Positions 1,227 to 30,460 of a stretch of 34,086 bases of DNA are shown piece after piece. Origin of the DNA: Candidatus Methanophagales archaeon (GTDB lineage: Archaea > Halobacteriota > Syntropharchaeia > Alkanophagales > Methanospirareceae); the NCBI GenBank assembly GCA_029241965.1, contig JAPWVK010000159.1, positions 1-34,086 on the forward strand, written 5' to 3'. Position 1 is the first letter of the stretch. Each line of letters opens with the position of its first letter. Made by a program: the position numbers and the translations under genes. Below the pieces are notes generated by a model that saw only the letters and a list, made by a program, of their open reading frames with translations, was not told where the DNA came from and searched no databases.

Positions 1227-1574
1227 CTATATTTTTTCCCATTCTTTACGAATTTTGTAGGAATCGTTTTCTCCGAATATTATCGTTCTTCTGAGCTTTT
1301 TCAAAGCTTCTACTCTTTTTTGAGTCTTCGGACGAACCCATAAAAGACGATATATAAGATATATAAGATATGAAAAAATGAAGATTGAGATGATAAGTAG
1401 AGAAAACCGTAAACCAGAAATGATGGAAGTGATGTTATTAGCTGGTAAATTAGTTGTTCCTGCTGCAAATATAAGGGCTGTAATTGAAAGTGCAACTGCT
1501 ACAAGCAGAGTGATAGTTGGGGTAGTACTATCTTGGCTATTTTGTATTCTCTGTCGAGTAGAGCTCATAGCCAT
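1227..1574 (-). CDS. Small hypothetical membrane protein (2 predicted TM)
   Basis: ORF with two hydrophobic helices; overlaps the upstream gene by 10 nt, which suggests co-transcription. Confidence 0.3.
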
Positions 1575-2221
1575 CTCCTCCCGGAAGCTACTATGAGCCC
1601 CCTCACAGAACCGGACTTGAGGTTTTCCCTCATCCAGCTCTTCGGAAGAACCTCCCTACCCTTTACCGGATAGGTTATGAGTCCAGTTTTGTTGCCACCC
1701 TTTACCAGCCTCTTTGTGCGGTGGATGTGTCCCTGACCCAACGGTTCAACCGCCAGCCCCTTCCCTCCACGGGCATTACCCCGCTTCTCCGGTACTATGA
1801 ACTGGTCCGACTCCCAGAGTGTCGTCTGCACTATCTTACCGTTTATATGTTTGATAGGACATACTCCGGTAAGGAGAACACCCCGGGTCTCCCGAGTTAA
1901 CATAATATCCATTTGATACCGTGCCACGGTCTCAGACCCCGTCGGGCTCGCATCGCATCGCCACGTCCTATTAAGACTATCGGCGATGAGAGTACTGCCT
2001 TCCGCCAACCAAACAGCGTCGGCCACCGACACAATAAGAATTTCGTGGCTGAATCCCTTCACTTGCGTTGCAGCCCAGTATCCCATTCCCCTAGCTTCAC
2101 CACAGCCTGTTACCAGGCTGGATGCAAGGTTCAGTTCTGAGGTGGCGGCTAACCTTTCCTCAGGTTGGATTTCCACCAACTGGATATTATGAACTTTGCT
2201 CGGCACTCCCCCCCCAAACAT
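1565..2221 (-). CDS. Hypothetical protein, weak metallophosphoesterase-like C-terminus (GQGHIHR)
   Basis: 218-aa ORF; a GHxH-like motif near the C-terminus, other phosphoesterase motifs not convincingly present; poly-C8 tract (2208-2215) inside its first codons. Confidence 0.3.
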
Positions 2222-2292: not shown

Positions 2293-4026
2293 TCACACAT
2301 CCAACCTGAATATCTTCACCTCTTTGCTCTGATAAAACGGCATGTAACCCTCGATAGAGGGGTTAGTCCATAACCGGTAATAGTTAGTCCGATTTGTGAG
2401 CTCGTTCCGCCCGACCAATCGCCCGTTATCATCAAAATACATCCTGATTGACTCATTACTGGGTGTCAGACTGTAACCCGTGGCATAACCCATTATAGGT
2501 GTCAGATAAGCATCGTACTGAAAAAGCATCAGGTACACTTCCGAGCTATTATGCTTCTGTTTGAGTGTTCGCGCAATCTGCAAGCCTTTGTCCGGGTCCG
2601 TTGCCACGATGACCGCAGAAACCGCTTTTACTGTCTCATCAGGAATGTACATCTGGTCAATTACAGGCCTACGTTTCGCGAAATACGCCAATGAATTGCC
2701 GTGGTCCCACCAGTTGATAAATAGCGAATCTGCGGCTGTGTTGTTCTGGATGTACAAAAATGCTGCTTTCTTTTCTGGTTGGATGATATATCCGCCTGGA
2801 TAGCGCACTTCATTTACGGAACAAATGACAGGATTTACGAATGCGATGACTATGATTACGATAACAGCCACACTCGCAAGCTTTTTCCATACCGATTTTT
2901 GCCGTTCCTGCCCCTGTATTCTTTCTAATATGAACGAGGCACCGATGCCAAGCGAGATGTACACGAACATCGAGAACATATCCATGAAATGGTACGCCCG
3001 AACTGCCGGCATCATGGTAGCGAGCAGTGCGGCAAGGAGATACAAACCACTTCTTCCATCGCGTTTGTAAAGGCCATACACACCAACTGCGGTCATGACA
3101 AGCCCAACCAGCAGAAATGTCCCGAAAAGCGATTCAAAACTTTCTATGCGCGGCGGCATAAGGTCGCTTGTGAATTTATAGACCAAAGGACCTTCTGCAA
3201 ATCCCAGCATCTGTGCCGCTCTCAAGATTTCCACGGGTCCACGCACCGGATAGAGAATCAGCGCTATTATAGTGCCAAAGAACAGCGAGGAACAGATGAG
3301 CACCCACGTTTTCGGCAGATAACTCTTATATTGTTTCATAGAATCACGCTTGACCAAAACGGAAGTGGTTAAAAGGAGTGCATAAAAGATCAGTATCGCA
3401 TGAATGATGAAATATCCACCCCACGTGAAACCTGTGATGCCAATAAGAGCTGCGGGAGTGAGTATAGAAGCCAAATAGATAGCTCGATCCTTGAATCCCC
3501 TCGGAAACGGATTATCAACAGTTTTTAGTGCGTACCAAAAAGCGACAACCGTTAATAAGATTAGAAACAGAGAAAGAGCGTCGTGGAAGACGAACCCTTT
3601 CATGGTGCGTAAGATCAGAATATGAGAGAATGACGCGAGCACACCCGCAATGATTCCCGCAGACTTATTAAATAGGCTCGTTGCAAACCAGTATATAACC
3701 AGCACGGTAGCAGCACCGAGTAAGGGCGGCACCAGACCCTCAGCGATAATCATGCTTGGTTGCGAGAATTTGTAAGGAATGAGATCAATCAACCAGCCCA
3801 CGAAGGCAAGAAGATAAGCCATACCGGGCTGATATAACGGCGCTGAACTGAACGGGTCAGGAACTGCAGGATGTCCAAACGAATAGATATATTCTGCCTG
3901 TCTTGCCATATAAGCATCGTTATCCCATTTTGTCTCCCAAGTACCACCTAAAAAGCGTATGGCGAATGCTAAAATAAAGAGCAAGATAAAAGGAAACAGC
4001 TCTTCTATCTTCTTTCTTGCACTCAT
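2293..4026 (-). CDS. aglB: Archaeal oligosaccharyltransferase AglB (STT3 family, short type)
   Basis: Multi-TM N-terminal domain with first-loop motif WDNDAYMARQAEYIY (cf. STT3 DxD/DPDxYYHxR loop), a WWDHG variant of the catalytic WWDYG motif, and a DPDKGLQI DK-type motif in the C-terminal soluble domain; 577 aa. Confidence 0.65.
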   Translation of the reverse strand: MSARKKIEELFPFILLFILAFAIRFLGGTWETKWDNDAYMARQAEYIYSFGHPAVPDPFSSAPLYQPGMAYLLAFVGWLIDLIPYKFSQPSMIIAEGLVPPLLGAATVLVIYWFATSLFNKSAGIIAGVLASFSHILILRTMKGFVFHDALSLFLILLTVVAFWYALKTVDNPFPRGFKDRAIYLASILTPAALIGITGFTWGGYFIIHAILIFYALLLTTSVLVKRDSMKQYKSYLPKTWVLICSSLFFGTIIALILYPVRGPVEILRAAQMLGFAEGPLVYKFTSDLMPPRIESFESLFGTFLLVGLVMTAVGVYGLYKRDGRSGLYLLAALLATMMPAVRAYHFMDMFSMFVYISLGIGASFILERIQGQERQKSVWKKLASVAVIVIIVIAFVNPVICSVNEVRYPGGYIIQPEKKAAFLYIQNNTAADSLFINWWDHGNSLAYFAKRRPVIDQMYIPDETVKAVSAVIVATDPDKGLQIARTLKQKHNSSEVYLMLFQYDAYLTPIMGYATGYSLTPSNESIRMYFDDNGRLVGRNELTNRTNYYRLWTNPSIEGYMPFYQSKEVKIFRLDV

Positions 4027-4063
4027 GGCTTTACACCATTTTTTCTGTGTCTTTTCAAATGAG

Positions 4064-5977
<1,914 letters not shown>

Positions 5978-14239: not shown

Positions 14240-14533
14240 CTACCCCCGCCATTCGGGGTAATCCTACTGCGGAACACGTCGGGGGTAACGCTTGCGTGGT
14301 AAGCTCGCAGGACAACGTGGAAAATCAGAAAGTCCGATTTGGATCAACTGCCAGGATAAGAACGCTATTTGTTGACAAGAAGTTGCATCACCGATTGCCT
14401 AACCGGGTACCCCCGCCATTCGGGGTAATCCTACCGCGGAATGCGCGGATGGGAACGTCCACGTAGTAAGCCCGCGGAACAACGTGTAAAATCTGAAAGT
14501 CCGGTTTAGATCAACTGCAAGGATAAAAACACC
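14240..14533 (+). ncRNA. Tandem pair of homologous structured RNA elements (copy 1 ~14240-14405, copy 2 ~14406-14533), candidate cis-regulatory leader or small RNAs; family not identified
   Basis: Two ~130-165-nt copies share CCCC-GCCATTC-GGGG hairpin, a long-range helix with compensatory changes (CTGCG...CGCAG vs CCGCG...CGCGG), inner hairpin ACGC..GCGT vs ACGT..ACGT, conserved GAAAGTCCG loop region. Confidence 0.35.
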
Positions 14534-14923
14534 ATGAAGAGCGTAAAGCGAACCATTGTAAGAGTCGTCACGTATAATAAGCGAAAACGGACTGTTACGC
14601 TTGGACCAAAAGGTACGGAATTTGGCCATAATGGCTACCATAACGTTATGGTGGGTGGACATACGATTCCCGGCTTACAGGCGGCTTCTAAGGTGTTCAT
14701 AAATATCTGTGATGTAGAACGTGGTAAGCCCTATATGCTCCCGGAATCACAGGGTAGGGACCTCGTAAGGGTAAACGATGGCTTAGAGGGTAGAGGATTT
14801 GGTAAAAAGCGAATGGCATCTTGTAATGAAAGGTATAGGGGTTCGAAATTTGCCCTAACCCGAAAGGGTGCTGACTTACCAAATTGGTGTTCCATTGTAT
14901 GCTTGGAGGCAGAATGTAAGTAG
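14534..14923 (+). CDS. Hypothetical small basic protein (129 aa)
   Basis: ATG immediately after the second RNA copy; K/R-rich N-terminus, several Cys; no recognisable family. Confidence 0.35.
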   Translation: MKSVKRTIVRVVTYNKRKRTVTLGPKGTEFGHNGYHNVMVGGHTIPGLQAASKVFINICDVERGKPYMLPESQGRDLVRVNDGLEGRGFGKKRMASCNERYRGSKFALTRKGADLPNWCSIVCLEAECK

Positions 14924-15171
14924 TTCAATTACGCCTGTAATAGGCGAGCGACTTACAGACATTCAACCAAAACGCCGATATCATATGGAAAGAGGTTGAA
15001 GAACTTGTTAACAGGTTGCAAACCTGAATTACAAAAGCAGTTAACTGCTGCCCGATACAGAAAGGGTTATGAAATGCTTGAGCGGTATGAAGGGAAACTT
15101 TCACGTACCGTTCTGAGACGAGGAGGGGCGAGCAATCGCCCCATCCTTAGTCTGCTAGCTAAACAAATAAT

Positions 15172-22343: not shown

Positions 22344-23801
22344 TTATACCGCTTCTCCCAACACCGACACCGTGGATGTGTCCGTTCCCGACCCTTTCAG
22401 CTCGTATGCCAGATACAAGTCATTGTAAGTTCCTACGGATACTGTTACCCCTGTATCTTTATAGCTACCCCATGACTTTAGAGTAGTCCAGCTACTGACC
22501 GCCCAGGGGCTCGTGTCATCTACGGTTACATTACAGAAATGAACCGGATAACTCTCTATGGCTGAAGACGTATTTGCATCCCTGACGAAGCATGCTAGCG
22601 TTATTGTCTCCCCTACGGTGTAACTATTTTCGTCAGGAGGCAAATCCCATGTTACGTTTGACCAGCCCCACTTAACCACCGACTCATTCTGATAAGAGCT
22701 GTTAGAATTAGATGCATTGTCATAAGTTGTTTCGGTAATATTGTATTCTCCGTCCTCAGGGACGGACAAAGTAACGACAAAAGTTCCATTTGTGGCGTTT
22801 GTAGTTGAATTGACTATCTTTCCTTCGTAAGGCACTTTGTCTATTTTCTTGATGATTACAGGTTTATTATTCTCATCAAGGGCGACCAAAATTCTTCCAT
22901 CCGAAATCTTCTGGTAGATGTTTTCTATCCTTATAAGAGAGAATTTATTTATATACCCGTTGCCAATATTATCAGTGGTGGTAGAAATGTCGGAAGTCGA
23001 AATCAGGTTTAAAGTTCCCACGGGATTGAAGGAAGAGATGGAAGAGCTTCCGGGAATGGAAGAGATGGTTGTAGAATTCATAAGGCTGAAGATTTTCGAG
23101 CATGAATTGAAGAAGTCTAAGGAATTACAGAGGTTCATATTTGAGTCGTTGTCCGCAAAGAGCAAATTGACGCTGGCAGATGCTATTGAACTTGGGGCGA
23201 AAATGAAGGAAGGAATGCTTGAAGAGCTCAAAGAGAAGGGATTACTGTAGATGAGACTGGTTGTGGATGCAAATGAGCTGTTCGCGGGGATAATCGCTAA
23301 AGGTAAGGAATTACAGAGTTGGACGCTGGACATATTATTTTCAGATGAAGTTGAATTGTTCGCACCTTTCATATTGCTTGCCGAATTGGAGAAGAACAGG
23401 GATGAGATAAGGGAAAAGTCAGGATTTTCCCTGAGGGATTTTGATGTGTTCGTTGGCATCCTCAAGTTAAGAGTCGGATTTATCCCTCTGGAGCGGTTTT
23501 TAGCTAAGATTCCGGAGGCTAAGGAGTTGGCACCGCATTTAAAAGATGTCGAATATTTCGCATAAGCATTGAAACTTGATTGCCCAATCTGGACGCAAGA
23601 AAAAGCGTTCAAAAAACAATCTGTAGTCAAGGTGTTCTCAACTCTTGATTTGTTTTCGTTTTTATCCGAGACAGGCCCATAGCCCGCTAAAGAGGTTGAA
23701 GGATATTTTGGATTGACTGAAGTGTAAACCTTATGCTCTGGCGAAAACGTCAGAACTGTTTCGTATCTACTCAAATCCATAAATCTTATTTTTTGCTTCA
23801 T
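22344..23801 (-). CDS. Truncated paralog of the giant surface protein (last ~190 aa) preceded by a third, N-terminally truncated intein-like element
   Basis: C-terminus ...SWTTLKSWGSYKDTGVTVSVGTYNDLYLAYELKGSGTDTSTVSVLGEAV nearly identical to the giant protein C-terminus; N-terminal part carries FSPEHKVY (Hint block B) and ILVALDENNKPVIIKKIDKVPYEGKI (Hint C-terminal half) around a low-complexity S/L-rich segment that is antisense to 22987-23682. Confidence 0.45.
   Translation of the reverse strand: MKQKIRFMDLSRYETVLTFSPEHKVYTSVNPKYPSTSLAGYGPVSDKNENKSRVENTLTTDCFLNAFSCVQIGQSSFNAYAKYSTSFKCGANSLASGILAKNRSRGINPTLNLRMPTNTSKSLRENPDFSLISSLFFSNSASNMKGANNSTSSENNMSSVQLCNSLPLAIIPANSSFASTTSLIYSNPFSLSSSSIPSFIFAPSSIASASVNLLFADNDSNMNLCNSLDFFNSCSKIFSLMNSTTISSIPGSSSISSFNPVGTLNLISTSDISTTTDNIGNGYINKFSLIRIENIYQKISDGRILVALDENNKPVIIKKIDKVPYEGKIVNSTTNATNGTFVVTLSVPEDGEYNITETTYDNASNSNSSYQNESVVKWGWSNVTWDLPPDENSYTVGETITLACFVRDANTSSAIESYPVHFCNVTVDDTSPWAVSSWTTLKSWGSYKDTGVTVSVGTYNDLYLAYELKGSGTDTSTVSVLGEAV
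22987..23250 (+). CDS. Small antitoxin-like protein (partner of the PIN gene), antisense within intein-like copy 3
   Basis: MSEVEIRFKVPTGLKEEMEELPG..., homologous to 26826-27050 and 27864-28094 products (shared E-[IV]-V-V/F-K/E-V-P N-terminus); stop abuts the PIN start (TAGATG); track ORF starts earlier at 22918. Confidence 0.45.
   Translation: MSEVEIRFKVPTGLKEEMEELPGMEEMVVEFIRLKIFEHELKKSKELQRFIFESLSAKSKLTLADAIELGAKMKEGMLEELKEKGLL
23251..23682 (+). pseudogene. PIN-domain toxin gene interrupted by an in-frame TAA
   Basis: MRLVVDANELFAGI... (PIN N-terminal Asp) ...HLKDVEYFA-stop-ALKLDCPIWTQEKAFKK...; intact paralogs read HLKDMPYVALSLKFDCKIL and DVDFFALALKLNCPLW at the same position. Confidence 0.45.
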
Positions 23802-26800
23802 ACCGCTTCTCCCAACACCGACACCGTGGATGTGCCCGTTCCCGACCCTTTCAGCTCGTATGCCAGATACAAGTCTTTGTGTGTTCCTTTGGATACTCTT
23901 ACCCCTGTATCTTTATAGCTACCCCAAGATTTTAGACTAATCCAGCTACCAACAGCCCCGGGGCTCGTGTCATTTGCGGTTACGTTAAACTTCTCGTCAT
24001 TTATTATTGTTGACCAACCGTTCACCTCTTCTACCTTCAGCCAGATCTTGTATTCAGTCGAAGAAGAAGGATTGTAAATTGTAACTACTGGTGAGTTACT
24101 GGTCACATTTTGCGGGTTGCCGCTGCCGTCCGCATTATTGTGTGGGTCAACTACTGTGGCACCAGTTGCACCCGAGAAGTTAATGGAACTGATACTCTGC
24201 GAAGCAGTTTGATTTCTGATTTCAAGTGTCGTTGCGTATGACAACTCTATGGATGTATTGGCTTCATCATCCGCAGTGACGTTATAAAACAGCGTGGCAT
24301 TATCCGTGATATTACATTTTGGATAGTACCATCCTACTGCCACGCCTGATGTATCCCAATCCAGGACGGCATATCCGCTGCTATTCGTGTAATTCAGACC
24401 AAGGTATGTCACGGTAGAGTCAGTCTTGTTATAAAAACGAACCGGATAATTCTCTATGCCCGATGAGGTATTGACATCGCGGACAAGGCATGTTAGCGTT
24501 ATTATCGCACCTGATTCGTAACTACTTCCGCCGGAAGGCGAGCCCCACGTTACGTTTGACCAACCCATCTTAAACACCGATTGATTTTGATACGAGATAT
24601 TATAATTCGATGCGTTATCATACATCTCTACCGACACGTTGTATTTCCCCTTAGCAGCACTTGAATTTAGATAAAAACTCGCATTTACATACGAATTTGG
24701 TGTGTAAGCAGTATCCGACGACGAATTGATGGTCGCAGTAGCGTTGTATATCGTGACCGTGTAGTTCTTTGGATTATCCTCCGTGTACGAGAAGTTGACA
24801 TAAAACTGCTCGCCGCCCTTCTTGTAGATTGGAACGGAAGTTGTAGGCACGTCTATCGTGATAGTCGGTGATTGCGAATCTATGGTGAAGTTCGTACCGA
24901 GCCACGTCTCTGACGTCTCGCCCTCATCGTCTGTTGCCACGCAATGCAACGTATAGAGTCCGGGACTATAATTGGATGCGTTGAACGCTATATCGGCAAT
25001 CCCGCCAGCGGCATCCGCTTCGGTAAAAGTATTGTTTACTATCGAAATAAATGTCTGGTTCGGATAGCACAAAGTCAGATTATGAACCACTGTGCCGCCG
25101 TCCGGATCGGTCGCAACCCCAACACCAATATCGAATATACCGTCATAGCTACCATTCATATCATAGTCCTTTACACCACTGATATTGAAATACCTAATGT
25201 GCGGGACGGTAGGTGGATAGTGCACCAATCTGATGTCGTTTGTAAGCAGCGTTGAATTGCTCCAACTACCCGATGCGTTTGCTGCATACAGCTTCATCTG
25301 GTGCTGCATACCACTTTTAGAGTAGTCGAAAAATAACTTCGGCGTCCATGCCGCCTGCAAAAATGACGAGCCATCATTGGTACTCGTCCATGCAACGTTT
25401 GTTTGCGCAAACGATATGTTCATACCGCTCGTACCATCTACATACGCCAGGCGGTACTCATTGCTTGTAGCTGTCGGAGATCGGAAGTATATGTATCCAT
25501 GCGGTGTTGTGTTTACGTCAGAACCTATAACCCTGCTATTGTTCACACCAATCGTAAAGGTCACGAACGAACTGTTGTACGGCTCGTACGTGTAATCATC
25601 TACTGTTGTGCCAGTGTACGAAGTCAAGTAAGTATAATATGGACTTTCGAGTGGCTTACCGCCAGTGATGTTATACGAGTCGTTTAGGTAGTAAATATCA
25701 AGATTGTTCGATGCTCCCAGATCGGTTGCCTCGAAAGCGATATGTATTTTATAGTCCGAAGAACCTTTAATTGCTTCAGTGTCCCAGAACTTGACCAGAG
25801 CAGCACGGTATCCTGTTGAGCCCTGTTTATAGATGTCATAATATTTGCTAATCTCTTTCTGCATCCGCGTCCTATCTAAGTAATACATGTTCTCAAATAC
25901 AGTATTCTCAACCGTGCCATTCCAGTGCACATACGAGTGCGTGTCATTTACCTTTTGGATAGTAAGCCGGGAAGTGTTTTCATCCGCGCCCGCCCATTTC
26001 CAGACGTTGCCCTCTGTGATGGTGGCATTATCCTCAAAGTTCAAGCGCTGTATTGTAGCATTCCGGTTATCGGCACGTAGAATCTGCTCGTTGCATAAAG
26101 CCCATACCGCAGATTTGTTGTTGCTCGGAACACGGAGTGACCAGTTATAACTATCGAGCACCGAGTCCCAGAGCGTCCAGACGAGCGATACGCTGCTGTT
26201 ATTGAGTGTATGTGTAGCATCCGTAGTAACCAACCAGGTTACGTTGAATGCACCGGTCGAGTTCTCGTAAATCGTAGCCGGCTCCTGCGAGATGAGTTCA
26301 AATGTCGGACAGCCCGCCTGATTGTATGCATAATCGACGTCACCACCAAATCGAAACTCTAATGCGTGTTTGCCCGAAGTTAAAACCTTACTTGTTTCGT
26401 AGCTGGTTTCGTTACAGGAATAATTGTGTATGAATAAGGAATTGTTTCGCCATTGATAATCCAGTGTGCGATTGCCGCATTTCAGGGCAAGCAATTGCAG
26501 GTCATAGTTTGAGTTGCCGCACCAGACAGGCGTTGAGTTTTTACGCCGTATTAAAAGTATGCGGTTCGGGACGGTAACAGAGTAAATCTTGCCGTTATAA
26601 GGGACTTCTTCGATTTTTTTTACTGCTACGGGATTCTGTTCGGAATCGAGGAATACTAACTGTTTGTCGGGTAGCTCGTGGAGTTCCGAGATTTTTAGCA
26701 ATGAATAGGTATTTAAACCGTTCGGATTTATAGTATTAGTGATGACGGTTTCTTTTTCATTCACGGTCACAGGCATCGAGAAGTTATTTAAATACAGCAA

Positions 26801-29800
26801 GTTAGTTTTATTATTGGTGAGAGAAATGGCCGAAATAGTTGTTAAGGTTCCAGAGGATATTGGTATAGAGCTTGGTAGGGTTTCAGAAGAGAATTGGCAA
26901 TTGTTATTCTCAAGATTCCTGAGAAGAGAGCTGGAAGAAATAAGAGGGATCGAAGCGATAGTATCTAAATCAAAACTAACAGAGGAGCAAGCCAAAGAAT
27001 TAGCAGATGAAGTAAGTTTAGCGATAGCTAAAAGACTTCTTGAGAAGTGATTCGAGATGTTATTGGTAGTTGACGCTAATGTCGTATTCTCAGCACTAAT
27101 AAGAAGAGGCAAGCCATTAAGGGTATTTGAGTTGAACAAGCTTCTCATGAAATTTGAATTTATTGCACCAGAGTTCCTGTTCTTTGAGGTGGGTAAAAGA
27201 ATGGATAAAATACTCAAGCTCACAGATTTATCTAAAGAAGAGTTCATAACGGTTTTTTCATTCATTAAGAATGAACTCGAGCTAATTCCTCTTGAAACAT
27301 TTGAAGATAAAGTTGATGAAGCCAAGGAGAGATCACCACACTTGAAGGATATGCCATATGTTGCTTTATCCCTCAAATTCGATTGTAAGATTCTGTCTGG
27401 AGATAAAGGAATAAAGGAATGCTTGCCTGGTAGAGTCATCATACCATCTAAAGCCTTAAGAATTCTATTTGGGAGGACTGCACCATAAACCTTATGCTCA
27501 GGCGAAACCAGCAGTTGACTGCCATCTTCCAGAGTAAGCTCGAACATCGCATCCGAATAGTCGTATTCCAGATATTTAATCGGTTTCTGATTGCAAAAAA
27601 GTTTTGTGTGTTCTTTTGTAATTTGTGGTTTCCTTGTGGTTTCGTTATGCCGTTTCACCAGCACGATGTCGTTCGGGACGTCAACGTCATAAATCTTGCC
27701 GGTATAAGGGACTTCTTCGATTTTTTTTACTGCTACGGGATTCAGCTCGGAGTCAAGGAATACTAACTGTTTGTCTGATAGCTTGTCATAGAGTTCCGAT
27801 ATTTTTAGCAATGAATAAGTATTTAAATACAGCAAGCCAGTCTTATAATTAGGGGCGATAGAAATGTCAGAGTTAGTTGTTGAGGTTCCAGGATTGCTTA
27901 GAGGAGAGGTTGGTAAGCTAGAGCGAGAGATAGAGGAGCTAATATCGTGGGAGGAGAAGCGTAAATTACTCTCTCTGTTCATGGATGAGGTTATGAAAGA
28001 TGCTAAACAGTTGAGCGAAGACGAACTGGTTACACTTGGAAGAGAGATTAAGAAAGGCAGGTTTGAAAAGCTCAAGCAAAGGGGGTTTGTATGAGTGCGG
28101 TTAGTTGCTGACACAACCGAACTCTTCTCGTTCTTCAACGCTCGGTCAAAGGCAAGGGAGTTATCCATAATCCCTGAATTGGAATTACATTCCCCCTCCT
28201 TTTCTTTATATGAACTCAAAGAACATAAATCCAAGATTCTTACGAGTTTCTCGTTGACCGAGACACAGTTTCTATTGATAATGAAGTTGCTTAAGACCGT
28301 TGTAAAAGTTGCTAAAGAGGAAGAATACTCGGATTTTCTATCGGAGGCTAAGGAAATATCTCCAGACCCTAACGATGTAGATTTCTTTGCGTTGGCTCTG
28401 AAACTGAACTGTCCGCTTTGGTCAGAGGATAAGCTGCTAAAGGGGCAGTCTAAGGTTAAGGTACTCTCTACAAAAGATTTACTTGAACTTTTATCTCTCA
28501 TCAGCCCATAAACCTTATGCTCAGGCGAAACCAGCAGTTTACTGCCATCCGCCAGAGTAAGCTTGAACATCGCATCCGAATAGTCGTATTCCAGATATTT
28601 AATCGGTTTCTGCCATTCCTGCTCTCCCGTCTCCTGGTTTAAAGTCAGAACTTCTTCTTCTGGTTCTAAATCTTTGAACAGTTTCCAGCCTTCTTTTGTT
28701 AGAACCTCGGTTTCTTCGTCGTAACATTCGTACGGTTGGTTAGTCCAGGTCGTCCCGTTAACCGCGGTTATAGTCAAATCCGCAGTTCCTTCCGTCTCGA
28801 ACTTGACAGACCAGTTTCCACCTACTGCTGGATAAGACTGGACATTAATTATACTAATCGGATCAACAGCAACATACCAGGGTCTTGCCTCTGTAAATGT
28901 TTCTGAATCATAACTAATTTCCGCAGTACCTAAAGCGTACAAATAAGGCCACACAGGAGGAACTGCGTAAGAATAACTGACAGATGTTTTCTTGCCAATT
29001 AAATCTTTATTCCAGGTTATTGTCTTTGTATCGTCTTCCTGCATAACCGTAGCGGCATCCGTTGAATACACATCGAACTCAGCAGGCACAAATTCTTTTA
29101 ACGTTACGGATTCCGCATCAGTAAAGCATTCTACGTCAATCCTGACCTCAAACCTGTCCTGCAGTGTGGGGTCTATCTTGCTTTGTGTCGTTCTTATGAT
29201 GTCGAATTCATACTCCGGCTGAACCCGGAAATACGTATTGAAGAATACTTCAACGTTGTCAATTAAACCCGTGACTGAGATCGAGTGATTACCCTCTATT
29301 TCCGTTGGGTAATCCAGGTTATAAATGCCAGATTCGCTACTTGCGGTAATCGTGCCATCAGCGGTGGAATAAATCGTTTCCTCGTTATCGGGATTGTTTA
29401 CGGTTAAATAAAGATCGGCATTGCTGACTGAGTGCCCTGCTTTATCCAGGACAACGATAACGAATTCCACGGTTTCACCGGGTTTGTAGATGCTTTTTTT
29501 GGTGTTTACGGAAACAAGGCCCCACGGGAATTCGGATTCTAAAACGTAAACGTGCTCGTCCTTCACTAACTCCACACTTAATGTATATACGCCCACTCGG
29601 AATGCTCGTTCCTTAGGCAATTTAATTGCGAATTTGCCTTCGCCTTTTTTCGCTATTTCGGGCGCGATGTCTGTTAGTGCACCCGAAGAATCATAAACAA
29701 AAGTCTCTATCGTTTCGTTTTCTGTCACCCAGCGTTTCAATGCTTTTTGGGGTGCGCCAATAGCAGCTTCCTCACTTACAGTGCTAAGCATTTCCCGCGA

Positions 29801-30460
29801 TGCGTTTTCGGTAACATTTTCATTAAAAGTTTTCTGCGAAGCGTTTTTGATAAAACTTTTATTAAAAGTTTTATATTCAAACGAAAAAGTCGGTTCCTCA
29901 TCCAGGGAATAAGACTCTTTGTTTGCAATTAGTTTTGGCGGTTCAATCACGGATTCCGTAACATTAATATTACGTGATTCACCTGTTGATTCGTTAATCG
30001 TATAATTCAAACCGATGACGGAGGTATTATCAGTTGCATTTTCCGGTGTTTGTATCGTAACGCCCGAGGCATTACCTGTTGTATTATCCGTTGTATTTTC
30101 CGGTGTTTGTAACGTAACGCCCGAGGCATTACCTGTTGTACTATTATTAGTTGCAGTTTCAGGTGTTTGTATCGTAATGCCCGTGGCATTATCAGTTGTG
30201 TTATCAGTTACATTATCAGGTGATAGTATCGGATTTATCGGTGCCGTTACGTCCGTAATATTTTCTGACGGGGTATCATTAAGGTTAGTTACGTATGATG
30301 TAATGTTTTCAGGCAGCGTTGTGTTCTCGTTTTGTGTTGCACCAAAAGCGATTAAAGGCACGATAAGCAAAGCTATGACAATTGTAATGCGTGCGCTCTT
30401 CCAGTTTGTTTTTGCTCTTAGCATCTTTTCGCAGGTCAAGCTTCCTTTTCTATCATACAT
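23798..30460 (-). CDS. Giant secreted cell-surface glycoprotein (2220 aa) containing two tandem intein-like insertions
   Basis: N-terminal signal/TM (ARITIVIALLIVPLIAFGA), three 22-aa tandem repeats, very high density of N-x-S/T sequons throughout, repeated beta-rich domains, C-terminal domain shared with 22344-23801 and 31856-32419 products; likely true start at MLRAKT (~30424). Confidence 0.55.
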   Translation of the reverse strand: MYDRKGSLTCEKMLRAKTNWKSARITIVIALLIVPLIAFGATQNENTTLPENITSYVTNLNDTPSENITDVTAPINPILSPDNVTDNTTDNATGITIQTPETATNNSTTGNASGVTLQTPENTTDNTTGNASGVTIQTPENATDNTSVIGLNYTINESTGESRNINVTESVIEPPKLIANKESYSLDEEPTFSFEYKTFNKSFIKNASQKTFNENVTENASREMLSTVSEEAAIGAPQKALKRWVTENETIETFVYDSSGALTDIAPEIAKKGEGKFAIKLPKERAFRVGVYTLSVELVKDEHVYVLESEFPWGLVSVNTKKSIYKPGETVEFVIVVLDKAGHSVSNADLYLTVNNPDNEETIYSTADGTITASSESGIYNLDYPTEIEGNHSISVTGLIDNVEVFFNTYFRVQPEYEFDIIRTTQSKIDPTLQDRFEVRIDVECFTDAESVTLKEFVPAEFDVYSTDAATVMQEDDTKTITWNKDLIGKKTSVSYSYAVPPVWPYLYALGTAEISYDSETFTEARPWYVAVDPISIINVQSYPAVGGNWSVKFETEGTADLTITAVNGTTWTNQPYECYDEETEVLTKEGWKLFKDLEPEEEVLTLNQETGEQEWQKPIKYLEYDYSDAMFKLTLADGSKLLVSPEHKVYGLMRDKSSSKSFVESTLTLDCPFSSLSSDQSGQFSFRANAKKSTSLGSGDISLASDRKSEYSSSLATFTTVLSNFIINRNCVSVNEKLVRILDLCSLSSYKEKEGECNSNSGIMDNSLAFDRALKNEKSSVVSATNRTHTNPLCLSFSNLPFLISLPSVTSSSSLNCLASFITSSMNRESNLRFSSHDISSSISRSSLPTSPLSNPGTSTTNSDISIAPNYKTGLLYLNTYSLLKISELYDKLSDKQLVFLDSELNPVAVKKIEEVPYTGKIYDVDVPNDIVLVKRHNETTRKPQITKEHTKLFCNQKPIKYLEYDYSDAMFELTLEDGSQLLVSPEHKVYGAVLPNRILKALDGMMTLPGKHSFIPLSPDRILQSNLRDKATYGISFKCGDLSLASSTLSSNVSRGISSSSFLMNEKTVMNSSLDKSVSLSILSILLPTSKNRNSGAINSNFMRSLFNSNTLNGLPLLISAENTTLASTTNNISNHFSRSLLAIAKLTSSANSLACSSVSFDLDTIASIPLISSSSLLRNLENNNCQFSSETLPSSIPISSGTLTTISAISLTNNKTNLLYLNNFSMPVTVNEKETVITNTINPNGLNTYSLLKISELHELPDKQLVFLDSEQNPVAVKKIEEVPYNGKIYSVTVPNRILLIRRKNSTPVWCGNSNYDLQLLALKCGNRTLDYQWRNNSLFIHNYSCNETSYETSKVLTSGKHALEFRFGGDVDYAYNQAGCPTFELISQEPATIYENSTGAFNVTWLVTTDATHTLNNSSVSLVWTLWDSVLDSYNWSLRVPSNNKSAVWALCNEQILRADNRNATIQRLNFEDNATITEGNVWKWAGADENTSRLTIQKVNDTHSYVHWNGTVENTVFENMYYLDRTRMQKEISKYYDIYKQGSTGYRAALVKFWDTEAIKGSSDYKIHIAFEATDLGASNNLDIYYLNDSYNITGGKPLESPYYTYLTSYTGTTVDDYTYEPYNSSFVTFTIGVNNSRVIGSDVNTTPHGYIYFRSPTATSNEYRLAYVDGTSGMNISFAQTNVAWTSTNDGSSFLQAAWTPKLFFDYSKSGMQHQMKLYAANASGSWSNSTLLTNDIRLVHYPPTVPHIRYFNISGVKDYDMNGSYDGIFDIGVGVATDPDGGTVVHNLTLCYPNQTFISIVNNTFTEADAAGGIADIAFNASNYSPGLYTLHCVATDDEGETSETWLGTNFTIDSQSPTITIDVPTTSVPIYKKGGEQFYVNFSYTEDNPKNYTVTIYNATATINSSSDTAYTPNSYVNASFYLNSSAAKGKYNVSVEMYDNASNYNISYQNQSVFKMGWSNVTWGSPSGGSSYESGAIITLTCLVRDVNTSSGIENYPVRFYNKTDSTVTYLGLNYTNSSGYAVLDWDTSGVAVGWYYPKCNITDNATLFYNVTADDEANTSIELSYATTLEIRNQTASQSISSINFSGATGATVVDPHNNADGSGNPQNVTSNSPVVTIYNPSSSTEYKIWLKVEEVNGWSTIINDEKFNVTANDTSPGAVGSWISLKSWGSYKDTGVRVSKGTHKDLYLAYELKGSGTGTSTVSVLGEAV
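26826..27050 (+). CDS. Small antitoxin-like protein, antisense within intein-like copy 2
   Basis: MAEIVVKVPEDIGIELGRVSEENWQLLFSRFLRRELEEIRGIEAIVSKSKLTEEQAKELADEVSLAIAKRLLEK; 6 nt upstream of the PIN start; track ORF starts earlier at 26739. Confidence 0.5.
   Translation: MAEIVVKVPEDIGIELGRVSEENWQLLFSRFLRRELEEIRGIEAIVSKSKLTEEQAKELADEVSLAIAKRLLEK
27057..27488 (+). CDS. PIN-domain (VapC-like, PIN_3-like) toxin
   Basis: MLLVVDANVVFSAL (Asp6), FEFIAPEFLFFEV (conserved Glu), HLKDMPYVALSLKFDCKILSGDKG (C-terminal Asp motifs); 143 aa. Confidence 0.6.
   Translation: MLLVVDANVVFSALIRRGKPLRVFELNKLLMKFEFIAPEFLFFEVGKRMDKILKLTDLSKEEFITVFSFIKNELELIPLETFEDKVDEAKERSPHLKDMPYVALSLKFDCKILSGDKGIKECLPGRVIIPSKALRILFGRTAP
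27864..28094 (+). CDS. Small antitoxin-like protein, antisense within intein-like copy 1
   Basis: MSELVVEVPGLLRGEVGKLEREIEELISWEEKRKLL...; stop TGA directly abuts the GTG start of the PIN gene. Confidence 0.5.
   Translation: MSELVVEVPGLLRGEVGKLEREIEELISWEEKRKLLSLFMDEVMKDAKQLSEDELVTLGREIKKGRFEKLKQRGFV
28095..28511 (+). CDS. PIN-domain (VapC-like) toxin, GTG start
   Basis: VRLVADTTELFSFF (Asp), ...EISPDPNDVDFFALALKLNCPLWSEDK; 138 aa. Confidence 0.55.
   Translation: MRLVADTTELFSFFNARSKARELSIIPELELHSPSFSLYELKEHKSKILTSFSLTETQFLLIMKLLKTVVKVAKEEEYSDFLSEAKEISPDPNDVDFFALALKLNCPLWSEDKLLKGQSKVKVLSTKDLLELLSLISP
30030..30240 (-). repeat. Three tandem ~66-bp coding repeats (22-aa sequon-rich units DNTTGNASGVTIQTPENATDNT) near the 5' end of the giant gene
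   Basis: Repeated nucleotide unit cgtaacgcccgaggcattacctgttgt... visible three times; sits within the 30424/30460-23798 giant-protein CDS. Confidence 0.6.

Follow-up and report, generated by a model that had tools for sequence, protein, structure and literature searches.

The gene for a giant secreted surface protein in a Candidatus Methanophagales archaeon appears to be interrupted in frame by an intein that carries, at the position of the homing endonuclease, predicted toxin–antitoxin (TA) operons on the opposite strand, with the reading frame of the host gene kept open across them. The gene is contained in a stretch of 34,086 nt (GCA_029241965.1, contig JAPWVK010000159.1, positions 1–34,086, forward strand), referred to here as the window. 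Judged from sequence, this core claim holds: the insertion has the hallmarks of an intein, related inteins in other archaea carry three unrelated classes of antisense TA cargo, and the codons of that cargo appear to be selected for the absence of stops in the host frame. We propose in addition that TA operon and intein serve each other, and put the probability of the whole chain, which includes predicted protein splicing and a benefit conferred by the TA operons, at about 0.55.

An intein in the surface-protein gene

A first-pass annotation of the window, made from the DNA letters, had described intein-like insertions in a minus-strand open reading frame (ORF) of 2220 aa. This ORF is present (Table 1), and contained in it is a match to the Pfam family Intein_splicing (PF14890, host residues 596–930, E = 3.5e-9, above the gathering cutoff). 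With the cargo deleted, 22 diverged members of the intein family described below are each reduced to a domain of ~140 aa, and the profile built from their alignment matches solved inteins, among them those of AceL NrdHF (PDB 6zgq, 7e-8) and Methanocaldococcus jannaschii KlbA (2jmz, 1e-6), as well as 2cw7 and the PI-PkoII and TFIIB inteins, so that the hidden Markov model (HMM) comparison suggested in the annotation favours an intein. The uncut 738-aa intein has no phmmer match among PDB sequences, and the cargo-deleted profile was required. Invariant in the 22-member alignment are Cys1, the block-B histidine (H70), the W-x-G-N motif and the +1 serine; block A with its Cys1 and block B had been correctly recognized in the annotation, and correspond in the window to C579 and, within VSPEHKVY, to H648. 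In an AlphaFold model of the whole element, the Hint pieces have a predicted local distance difference test (pLDDT) score of 83–96, and the stretches antisense to the cargo score 23–35. The best 50 Foldseek matches listed for the PDB are all of the Hint fold, comprising inteins, bacterial intein-like (BIL) domains and hedgehog autoprocessing domains.

Homologues free of the intein, sought with the conceptually spliced extein as query, are uninterrupted exactly at the predicted junction. Protein P0020 is contiguous across it (...TAVNGTTWSNDNEDNDLQLREIKCGN...), and the same is observed for P0037, P0029 and P0041; these are genes lacking the insertion, of the kind that the annotation had proposed to look for. 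By this comparison the element is an in-frame insertion and, with its Cys1, block-B histidine, terminal Gly-Asn and +1 serine, it is predicted to be a cis-splicing class-1 intein.

The boundaries and anatomy of the intein differ from those first proposed. Common to the family, as seen in relatives found through host-frame translation and the Hint N-half profile, is the C-terminal end ...V-W-[S/C]-G-N|S. Relatives borne by ThyX end in ...WCGN|C immediately before the ThyX RHR motif, which fixes the C-terminal junction; in the window this is ...PVWCGN1316|S1317. The C-terminus previously placed at VKRHN is therefore replaced by Asn1316, and the expected splice peptide, given earlier as ...NQPYE|STPVW..., is corrected by the new boundary to a predicted ligated junction of ...TNQPYE|SNYDLQ.... 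Two adjacent inteins of ~1.1 kb each had been described, and are instead one composite. Its 738 residues comprise, in order, a full Hint N-half (unit A), slot A, C-half A, a linker, a partial N-half (unit B), slot B and a full C-half B; unit A is without the last strand, and the N-half of unit B is without the first ~39 residues, including Cys1. N-half B is 96% identical in DNA to positions 28506–28612 (107 nt), and the C-halves of the two units are 87% identical (121 nt). The window intein is a single element with an internal tandem partial duplication, giving two cargo slots. The host frame is unbroken from Cys1 to the terminal Asn.

In the host frame of the window no endonuclease family is matched in Pfam, and the middles are of low complexity with a pLDDT below 35. 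Between the same Hint halves, relatives P0010 and P0013–P0016 have an in-frame middle with a LAGLIDADG-type motif, recognized by eye (LAGLIDADG_3 matches are weak in P0010, P0013, P0015 and P0016, and there is none in P0014); P0006 has no such middle. As the cargo sits where these relatives have the LAGLIDADG-like middle, it occupies the endonuclease position.

Table 1 Features of the interrupted surface-protein gene and its surroundings (window positions)
Feature	Position	Strand	Remarks
Host gene	23798–30460	-	2220-aa ORF; giant secreted surface protein, rich in N-glycosylation sites, with an MG2 domain and Ig-like repeats
Composite class-1 intein, 738 aa	26513–28726	-	Cys579 ... Gly-Asn1316; from family alignment
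Codon of +1 residue, Ser1317	26510–26512	-	Directly after the intein
Hint N-half, unit A	28505–28726	-	Blocks A and B (CYDEETEVLTKEGW ... LLVSPEHKVYG); pLDDT ~95
Hint C-half, unit A	27644–27826	-	Ends ...VKRHN, without final strand or splice Asn; pLDDT ~94
Junction linker, 19 aa	27587–27643	-	ETTRKPQITKEHTKLFCNQ; joins units A and B
Partial Hint N-half, unit B	27482–27586	-	KPIKYLEY...SPEHKVYG; no Cys1, no block A
Hint C-half, unit B	26513–26716	-	True C-terminus, ...LLIRRKNSTPVWCGN
Cassette A TATA box	27822–27829	+	Inside palindrome GTATTTAAATAC; 42 nt before ATG; followed by GGGG Shine–Dalgarno-like motif
Cassette A partner gene, 76 aa	27864–28094	+	Antitoxin-like
Cassette A PIN_2 nuclease gene, 138 aa	28095–28511	+	PF10130, E = 2.7e-20
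Cassette B TATA box	26787–26794	+	39 nt before ATG; followed by GGTGA Shine–Dalgarno-like motif
Cassette B partner gene, 74 aa	26826–27050	+	Antitoxin-like; ATG at 26826
Cassette B PIN_2 nuclease gene, 143 aa	27057–27488	+	PF10130, E = 8.4e-22
PIN stop regions	28505–28511, 27482–27488, 23720–23730	+	CCATAAACCTTATGCTC in copies
485-aa ORF	22344–23801	-	Decayed intein fragment and partial duplicate of host C-terminus; no Cys1, no C-terminal Asn
Cassette C	22948–23565	+	TATA box 22948–22955, partner 22987–23250, PIN_2 23251–23565 (PF10130, E = 2e-9)

Antisense cassettes in the two slots

Each slot is filled by a plus-strand cassette composed of a TATA box, a gene for a small partner protein and, after a gap of 0–6 nt, a gene for a PIN_2 nuclease; in cassette A the GTG start codon of the nuclease gene abuts the stop codon of the partner gene. 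The plus-strand PIN ORFs reported in the first-pass annotation, those of cassettes A and B and of a third cassette outside the intein, all belong to PF10130, although neither NCBIfam nor PADLOC has a name for PIN_2. The matches of PIN A and PIN B cover profile positions 1–117 of 133. The two proteins share 29% identity and have acidic residues at the expected motifs (by eye), and D6 is nearly invariant in the alignment of PIN cargo. The partner family comprises 101–117 ORFs in the fetched loci, all antisense to the host gene and 60 of them directly upstream of a PIN-like ORF; its size, position and conserved synteny suggest a role as antitoxin.

Both ends of the cassettes are also read in the host frame. 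The TATA boxes have the sequence TTTAAATA or TTTATATA, those of cassettes A and B lying within the palindrome GTATTTAAATAC, and the box region of cassette A is read as 'LYLNT'. A TATA box read as Y-L-N would explain the Y[LI]N motif that is conserved family-wide just before the C-half. At the other end, the conserved Val-Tyr codons of block B, read as their reverse complement, supply the TAA stop codon of the PIN gene (CCATAAACCTTATGCTC is common to the copies), so that the cargo ORFs end inside Hint-coding sequence. The GC skew turns positive across the cassettes, as expected for coding on the plus strand. No terminal inverted repeats are found around the cassettes in the window, and a transposon model for them is unsupported for this reason. 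The window intein contains no tRNA gene.

A family of inteins with varying cargo

Scanning one genome per species with a profile of the Hint N-half identifies 78 loci, mainly in metagenome-assembled genomes of Woese-, Pace-, Nano- and Aenigmarchaeota, Altiarchaeota, Methanosarcinales and Methanobacteriota. Typical hosts are giant LamG/DUF2341 surface-protein genes, and several contigs hold multiple intein copies. Together with the window and three further contigs these loci provide 82 N-halves, from 65 of which the host frame is unbroken up to W[SC]GN|S (median intein length 403 aa, longest 856 aa).

Filling the middles of these inteins are pairs of antisense ORFs that Pfam assigns to three unrelated TA classes: PIN_2 with its small partner (45 of 61 long cargo ORFs), DUF433 with a PIN-like protein of the DUF5615/Mut7-C type (12 each), and a ParE/RelE/YafQ toxin with a partner of ~95 aa (ParE/YafQ in 9–12; the YafQ family TIGR00053 is matched with E = 1e-16, below its curated cutoff). 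By a stricter HMM count, a toxin gene is present in at least 52 of the 65 complete inteins, and five further inteins missed by that count have DUF433 followed directly downstream by a longer ORF, the arrangement seen for DUF433/DUF5615. Nine inteins contain two or more toxin genes, often with a truncated C-half/N-half joint as in the window (for example, L068). The exact motif TTTAWATA occurs at a fixed distance from the cargo start in 32 of 59 cargo inteins; 15 of the 35 sites lie at exactly 30 nt, the commonest distance, and in the listed examples of a second group, at 55 nt, a GGAGGT is present. A spacing of 30 nt between TATA box and start is typical of leaderless archaeal mRNAs. That the PIN protein is a novel homing nuclease was considered and rejected: the slot is shared by three toxin families with unrelated mechanisms, and what these have in common is that they are TA modules, not that they cleave DNA.

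Locus L082 is an orthologue of the window host gene with an intein at the same site (TNQPYE|C ... PVWCGN|SNYDLQ), the cargo of which is a ParE-type pair and a truncated DUF433, with no PIN_2 pairs. From this comparison, cargo turns over at a fixed intein site. The near-identical flanks around dissimilar cargo, the lack of inverted repeats and the presence of more than one intein copy on a contig point to an exchange of cassettes in which the Hint-coding flanks recombine homologously.

Some family members hold other material. Sense-strand tRNA genes of 82–91 nt are located in or immediately before the inteins of L008 (779–860), L023 (4412–4493 and 4847–4928), L034 (3794–3875), L044 (3707–3788), L046 (3884–3965), L050 (1017–1101), L058 (214–301) and L063 (670–760). 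Their scores with Rfam RF00005 are 47–56 bits, that of L034 only 31, and ARAGORN identifies them as Ile-GAU, Leu-CAA or Phe-GAA. The middle of L008 holds only its tRNA gene. In those translated (L008 and L023) the host frame is open across the tRNA genes, and a few codons upstream there is a 'KYLNI'-type stretch, a TATTTAAATA TATA box in the DNA. Up to three positions are used, namely the slot in the middle that follows block B, the loop ahead of the last strand and, as judged from the start of the N-half match, apparently the inside of block A. In L019 the cargo lies further downstream, with a DUF433 and PIN-like pair (3950–4565) between ...VLVRR and the final ...WSGN, where L023 has the tRNA gene at 4847–4928; extra host-frame sequence precedes the last strand in the C-terminal regions of L004 and L005, and block A carries inserts in other members. 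In this family, it seems, the Hint fold accepts insertions at three points or more.

A few loci are in bins labelled bacterial, namely L010 (a Saccharibacteria bin), L016 and L061 ('Hydrothermota bacterium') and L081 (a Planctomycetia bin). The host proteins of L016, L061 and L010 and the TATA-type promoter of L010 have an archaeal look, and these loci probably reflect mis-binning, not bacterial occurrence. In the database proteins P0001–P0005, P0007 and P0009, TA operons translated in antisense show up as long stretches rich in Ser, Leu and Asn; gene callers either run on across the cargo or, it appears, interrupt the host gene. Comparison of a mini-intein profile with the protein database (P0047–P0085) yields mostly proteins of 77–253 aa, probably fragments, and provides no useful census.

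Selection for an open host frame

All six cargo ORFs of the window are in one phase, referred to here as phase 2, in which host codon position 1 falls on cargo codon position 2. The antisense frame in the host phase has 0 stops and the other two have 5–13 each, which bears out the common phase and open host frame noted in the first-pass annotation. In phase 2 the wobble positions of both strands coincide, and only two cargo contexts can give a host stop: a Tyr codon that follows a codon with T or C as its last base, and a His or Gln codon that follows one with T. Owing to this restriction, the window alone is weak evidence for selection. The probability that the antisense frame stays open, a calculation proposed in the annotation, depends on the reference: by synonymous permutation it is 0.26 and 0.35 for the two PIN genes and 1.0 for the partners, and on the basis of background window genes, with a phase-2 density of 3.1 stops per 100 codons, it is ~1e-3 per cassette.

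The family provides larger samples, for which cargo sets were defined by HMM from all six frames, with no conditioning on openness. In antisense phase 2 not one stop occurs in any of the 69 PIN-like ORFs, compared with 8–12 stops per 100 codons in the other phases, and the summed log10 P under synonymous permutation is -47. The second arrangement, the codon-aligned phase 3, is used by the other toxin classes: 32 of 33 ParE-like and 14 of 14 DUF433 ORFs are without stops in this phase, the sole ParE exception being the only copy on the host strand. Openness in phase 3 demands complete avoidance of TTA, CTA and TCA, and the ParE and DUF433 ORFs contain 0 of these codons where ~260 are expected (337 Leu and 177 Ser codons); in the phase-2 cargo of the same elements, they account for 56% of Leu and 40% of Ser codons. 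Ordinary window genes and the one host-strand ParE are the only usable controls for openness. Fifteen PIN genes outside annotated inteins are likewise all antisense and all open in phase 2, and probably lie in further inteins.

We regard as robust, at the level of sequence statistics, the conclusion that reading-through of the cargo is under selection. Selection against stops across the family excludes, as a general state, both a split intein and a pseudogene. A split intein is also rejected on the continuity of the host frame from Cys1 to the terminal Asn, both in the window and at 65 of the 82 loci.

The third copy and the gene neighbourhood

The annotation had counted three recurrences of the arrangement. 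A PIN_2/partner cassette is indeed present in the third copy, but this copy lies outside the 2220-aa ORF and is a decayed remnant without either splice junction, and its PIN gene is truncated by an in-frame TAA (...EYFA*), past which the reading resumes with ALKLDCPIWTQEK. Containing this remnant is the 485-aa ORF, the ATG of which overlaps the TGA stop of the host gene as ATGA (23798–23801). The repeats at 22346–22533 and 23800–23987 are 90% identical in DNA, both ORFs end in ...STVSVLGEAV, and the 485-aa ORF looks like an intein-associated partial duplication of the 3' end of the host gene.

The host protein has a signal-anchor-like N-terminus, numerous N-x-S/T sequons and an MG2 domain (Pfam E = 2e-12), and its nearest homologues, from Methanophagaceae/ANME-1, are 91–94% identical. 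Neighbouring the host gene are chromosomal archaeal genes, for gyrB, an AglB/STT3 oligosaccharyltransferase, a class I tRNA synthetase of the Trp/Tyr type, CoaBC and a cohesin-domain protein. The window also contains two group II intron RNA signatures found with Rfam, at 1553–2173 (-) and 14244–15155 (+) (RF02005, 112 bits; RF00029, 60 and 50 bits; RF02012 also matched), and thus holds several kinds of mobile element.

Proposed mechanism and alternative explanations

Splicing, toxicity and its neutralization, recombinational exchange of cassettes and the benefit of addiction are inferred here from sequence, and together suggest the following mechanism. The loop into which endonucleases insert would accommodate small type II TA operons on the opposite strand, each transcribed independently. 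The host ribosome would read this cargo backwards, so that the codon choice of the cargo has to keep the host frame free of stops, and the product of read-through would be loops of ~210–245 residues, low in complexity and predicted to be disordered. Protein splicing would discard these loops with the intein and restore ...TNQPYE-SNYDLQ.... Cassettes would move between intein copies by way of the conserved Hint-coding flanks. The intein would offer the TA operon an insertion site harmless to the host, and the TA operon would penalize loss or replacement of the intein allele, thereby assuming the role in persistence of the lost endonuclease; addiction in place of homing, as the first-pass annotation had envisaged, is plausible.

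Several points weigh against this interpretation. The penultimate residue is Gly where His is usual, which is atypical though not disqualifying, and inteins are not usually housed in secreted proteins. With its redundant partial halves the composite might misfold, and splicing around hydrophobic low-complexity loops of 200–250 residues is assumed. The ~75-aa antitoxin-like partner does adjoin each PIN gene, as annotated, but matches no curated family in Pfam, NCBIfam or PADLOC. In the window, permutation leaves the PIN genes open at the appreciable frequencies given above, and the partners always. The family loci are metagenome-assembled genomes that are phylogenetically non-independent, so the P values are nominal.

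The same data, moreover, fit neutral hitch-hiking of the cassettes as well as they fit addiction. TA cassettes may simply accumulate in the intein loop as one of the few harmless spots in these compact genomes, where splicing would take out anything translated, with no gain to the intein, and the codon bias would then reflect selection for an intact host protein only. With this explanation, which we consider possible though rather unlikely, all of the architectural evidence agrees equally well. Hitch-hiking in archaeal chromosomes is known for type II TA modules; the sense-strand tRNA genes that such inteins also hold speak for a general landing pad; and the cargo decays, as seen in the nonsense codon of PIN C and the truncated DUF433 of L082. 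Speaking for a closer association, although not decisively, are the restriction of identified cargo other than tRNAs to TA modules, of three unrelated classes and in at least 52 of 65 complete inteins, and the rarity in the sample of mini versions free of cargo. A different objection concerns splicing itself, in that the Hint domain could act by cleavage or remodelling of the BIL or hedgehog type, or the interrupted genes could be pseudogenes. BIL domains, unlike inteins, are typically found in variable secreted surface proteins such as the host, the penultimate Gly in place of His is consistent with this, the fold matches listed include structures of BIL2 and hedgehog domains, and the composite duplication and dead third copy show decay. 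We nevertheless find it improbable: Cys1, the terminal Asn and the +1 Ser are invariant in 22 diverged members, as ligation requires, homologues free of the intein run on without a break at precisely these residues, and close relatives in ThyX lie at a conserved catalytic motif with a +1 Cys, the behaviour of a classic intein, whereas the pseudogene variant is at odds with the strong selection against stops. Assignment to the BIL class was rejected on the invariant +1 Ser and the large insertion at the endonuclease-type site.

Two further explanations dispense with a role for the encoded TA proteins or for selection. Convergent transcription or antisense RNA from the TA promoters might tune the surface-protein gene; each cassette has its own predicted promoter directed against the host gene, and antisense transcription over 0.7 kb would be expected to form duplexes with the host mRNA. 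No link is seen between cargo type and host gene type, however, and the PIN, ParE and DUF433 homology that cargo proteins retain across 15–67% identity demands selection on the proteins, which makes a purely regulatory role very improbable. To chance or artefact we give next to no weight. The open frame might be intrinsic to the phase and to Glu/Lys/Leu-rich cargo, given that phase-2 stops are limited to Tyr, His and Gln codons and that the window partners cannot yield any, and the tandem might be a mis-assembly of two alleles, as 96% identical repeated flanks could confuse assemblers. Against this stand the open frames of 69 of 69 PIN-like, 32 of 33 ParE-like and 14 of 14 DUF433 cargo ORFs, including the total avoidance of three codons in phase 3, the presence of two or more toxin genes per intein in nine independent assemblies, and the 65 of 82 loci in which the Hint halves are mutually in frame across the cargo; for the family, this explanation is effectively refuted.

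More tentatively than the mutual-service interpretation of the window element, the family as a whole may constitute an undescribed composite class of selfish element, in which endonuclease-less inteins persist by means of exchangeable antisense TA cassettes and, in DPANN archaea, also tRNA genes. In such a class the intein could be likened to a protein-level 'integron' with cargo DNA coding on both strands.

Relation to known systems

With canonical class-1 inteins (PI-PkoII, PI-PfuI, ThyX inteins and mini-inteins) the window element shares the Hint fold, Cys1, the block-B histidine, the terminal Asn and the +1 nucleophile, as well as in-frame insertion at a site uninterrupted in homologues and the location of cargo in the loop between N- and C-halves. 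Unlike LAGLIDADG inteins, it is without an endonuclease domain, and its loop DNA consists of two-gene opposite-strand operons with their own promoters, the translation of the loop apparently being a by-product constrained only to be free of stops. It also differs in its penultimate Gly and in its host, a secreted surface protein and not an enzyme of replication or repair. The cassettes resemble type II TA systems (VapBC-like PIN, RelBE/ParDE/YafQ, and DUF433 with PIN-like DUF5615) in having a small upstream partner coupled to a toxin-family gene of ~90–145 aa under its own promoter, with toxin domains recognized by Pfam and NCBIfam; in contrast to those systems, the operons are antisense and embedded in another reading frame that shapes their codon usage, and the partner of PIN_2 is unannotated. 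BIL domains have the same Hint fold, occur in variable surface or secreted proteins and are represented among the listed fold matches. They are without endonuclease-type insertions and typically without a conserved +1 nucleophile context, whereas here the +1 Ser and terminal Asn are invariant and intein-free homologues fit a splicing junction.

The nearest published analogue found is ShiLan (PMC11855218), described in the relevant part of that report as an in-frame insertion in phage methylase genes that conceals an HNH endonuclease encoded out of frame. As in the window, the insertion is open in the host frame and the real gene is in another; as that part of the report presents it, the hidden gene is a homing endonuclease on the same strand with no detectable splicing domain, in contrast to an antisense TA operon in an intein. 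STALEMATE (PMC12455656), on the outline given in its account, is a synthetic entanglement of the sequences of toxin and essential genes, and shares with the window overlapping frames, mutual mutational constraint and a toxin or containment module; it is engineered, whereas the present case is apparently natural, with one product made disposable by predicted splicing. In a full-text literature search no account came to light of an intein with TA or antisense cargo, in line with the annotation, which knew of none with opposite-strand TA cargo; a Thiomargarita paper in which intein and TA co-occur (PMC4853749) proved irrelevant. Inteins and type II TA modules are each known, and it is their combination, the antisense dual coding and the phase rules that appear new.

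Implications

The inteins described here would represent natural and widespread antisense dual coding over 200 or more codons with selection on both strands, cases of which are debated and rarely demonstrable in prokaryotes. The accompanying phases and signals may be read as natural design rules for sequence entanglement: the two frames are locked in a phase in which their wobble positions coincide, and a TATA box is translated as Tyr-Leu-Asn. The annotation of giant surface proteins in DPANN and ANME archaea is likely to be affected systematically, with loci split or mis-annotated by gene callers.

Protein splicing, as predicted here, would turn DNA in essential or large genes into neutral space for TA modules and apparently for tRNA genes, in DPANN archaea and ANME-related lineages with their compact genomes. 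The accepted life cycle, in which an intein invades, its endonuclease decays and the intein is lost, would gain a further state, with unrelated selfish modules standing in for the endonuclease and perhaps preventing loss. If these inteins are indeed composite selfish elements, splicing creates genomic space, and TA addiction can replace homing in the intein life cycle.

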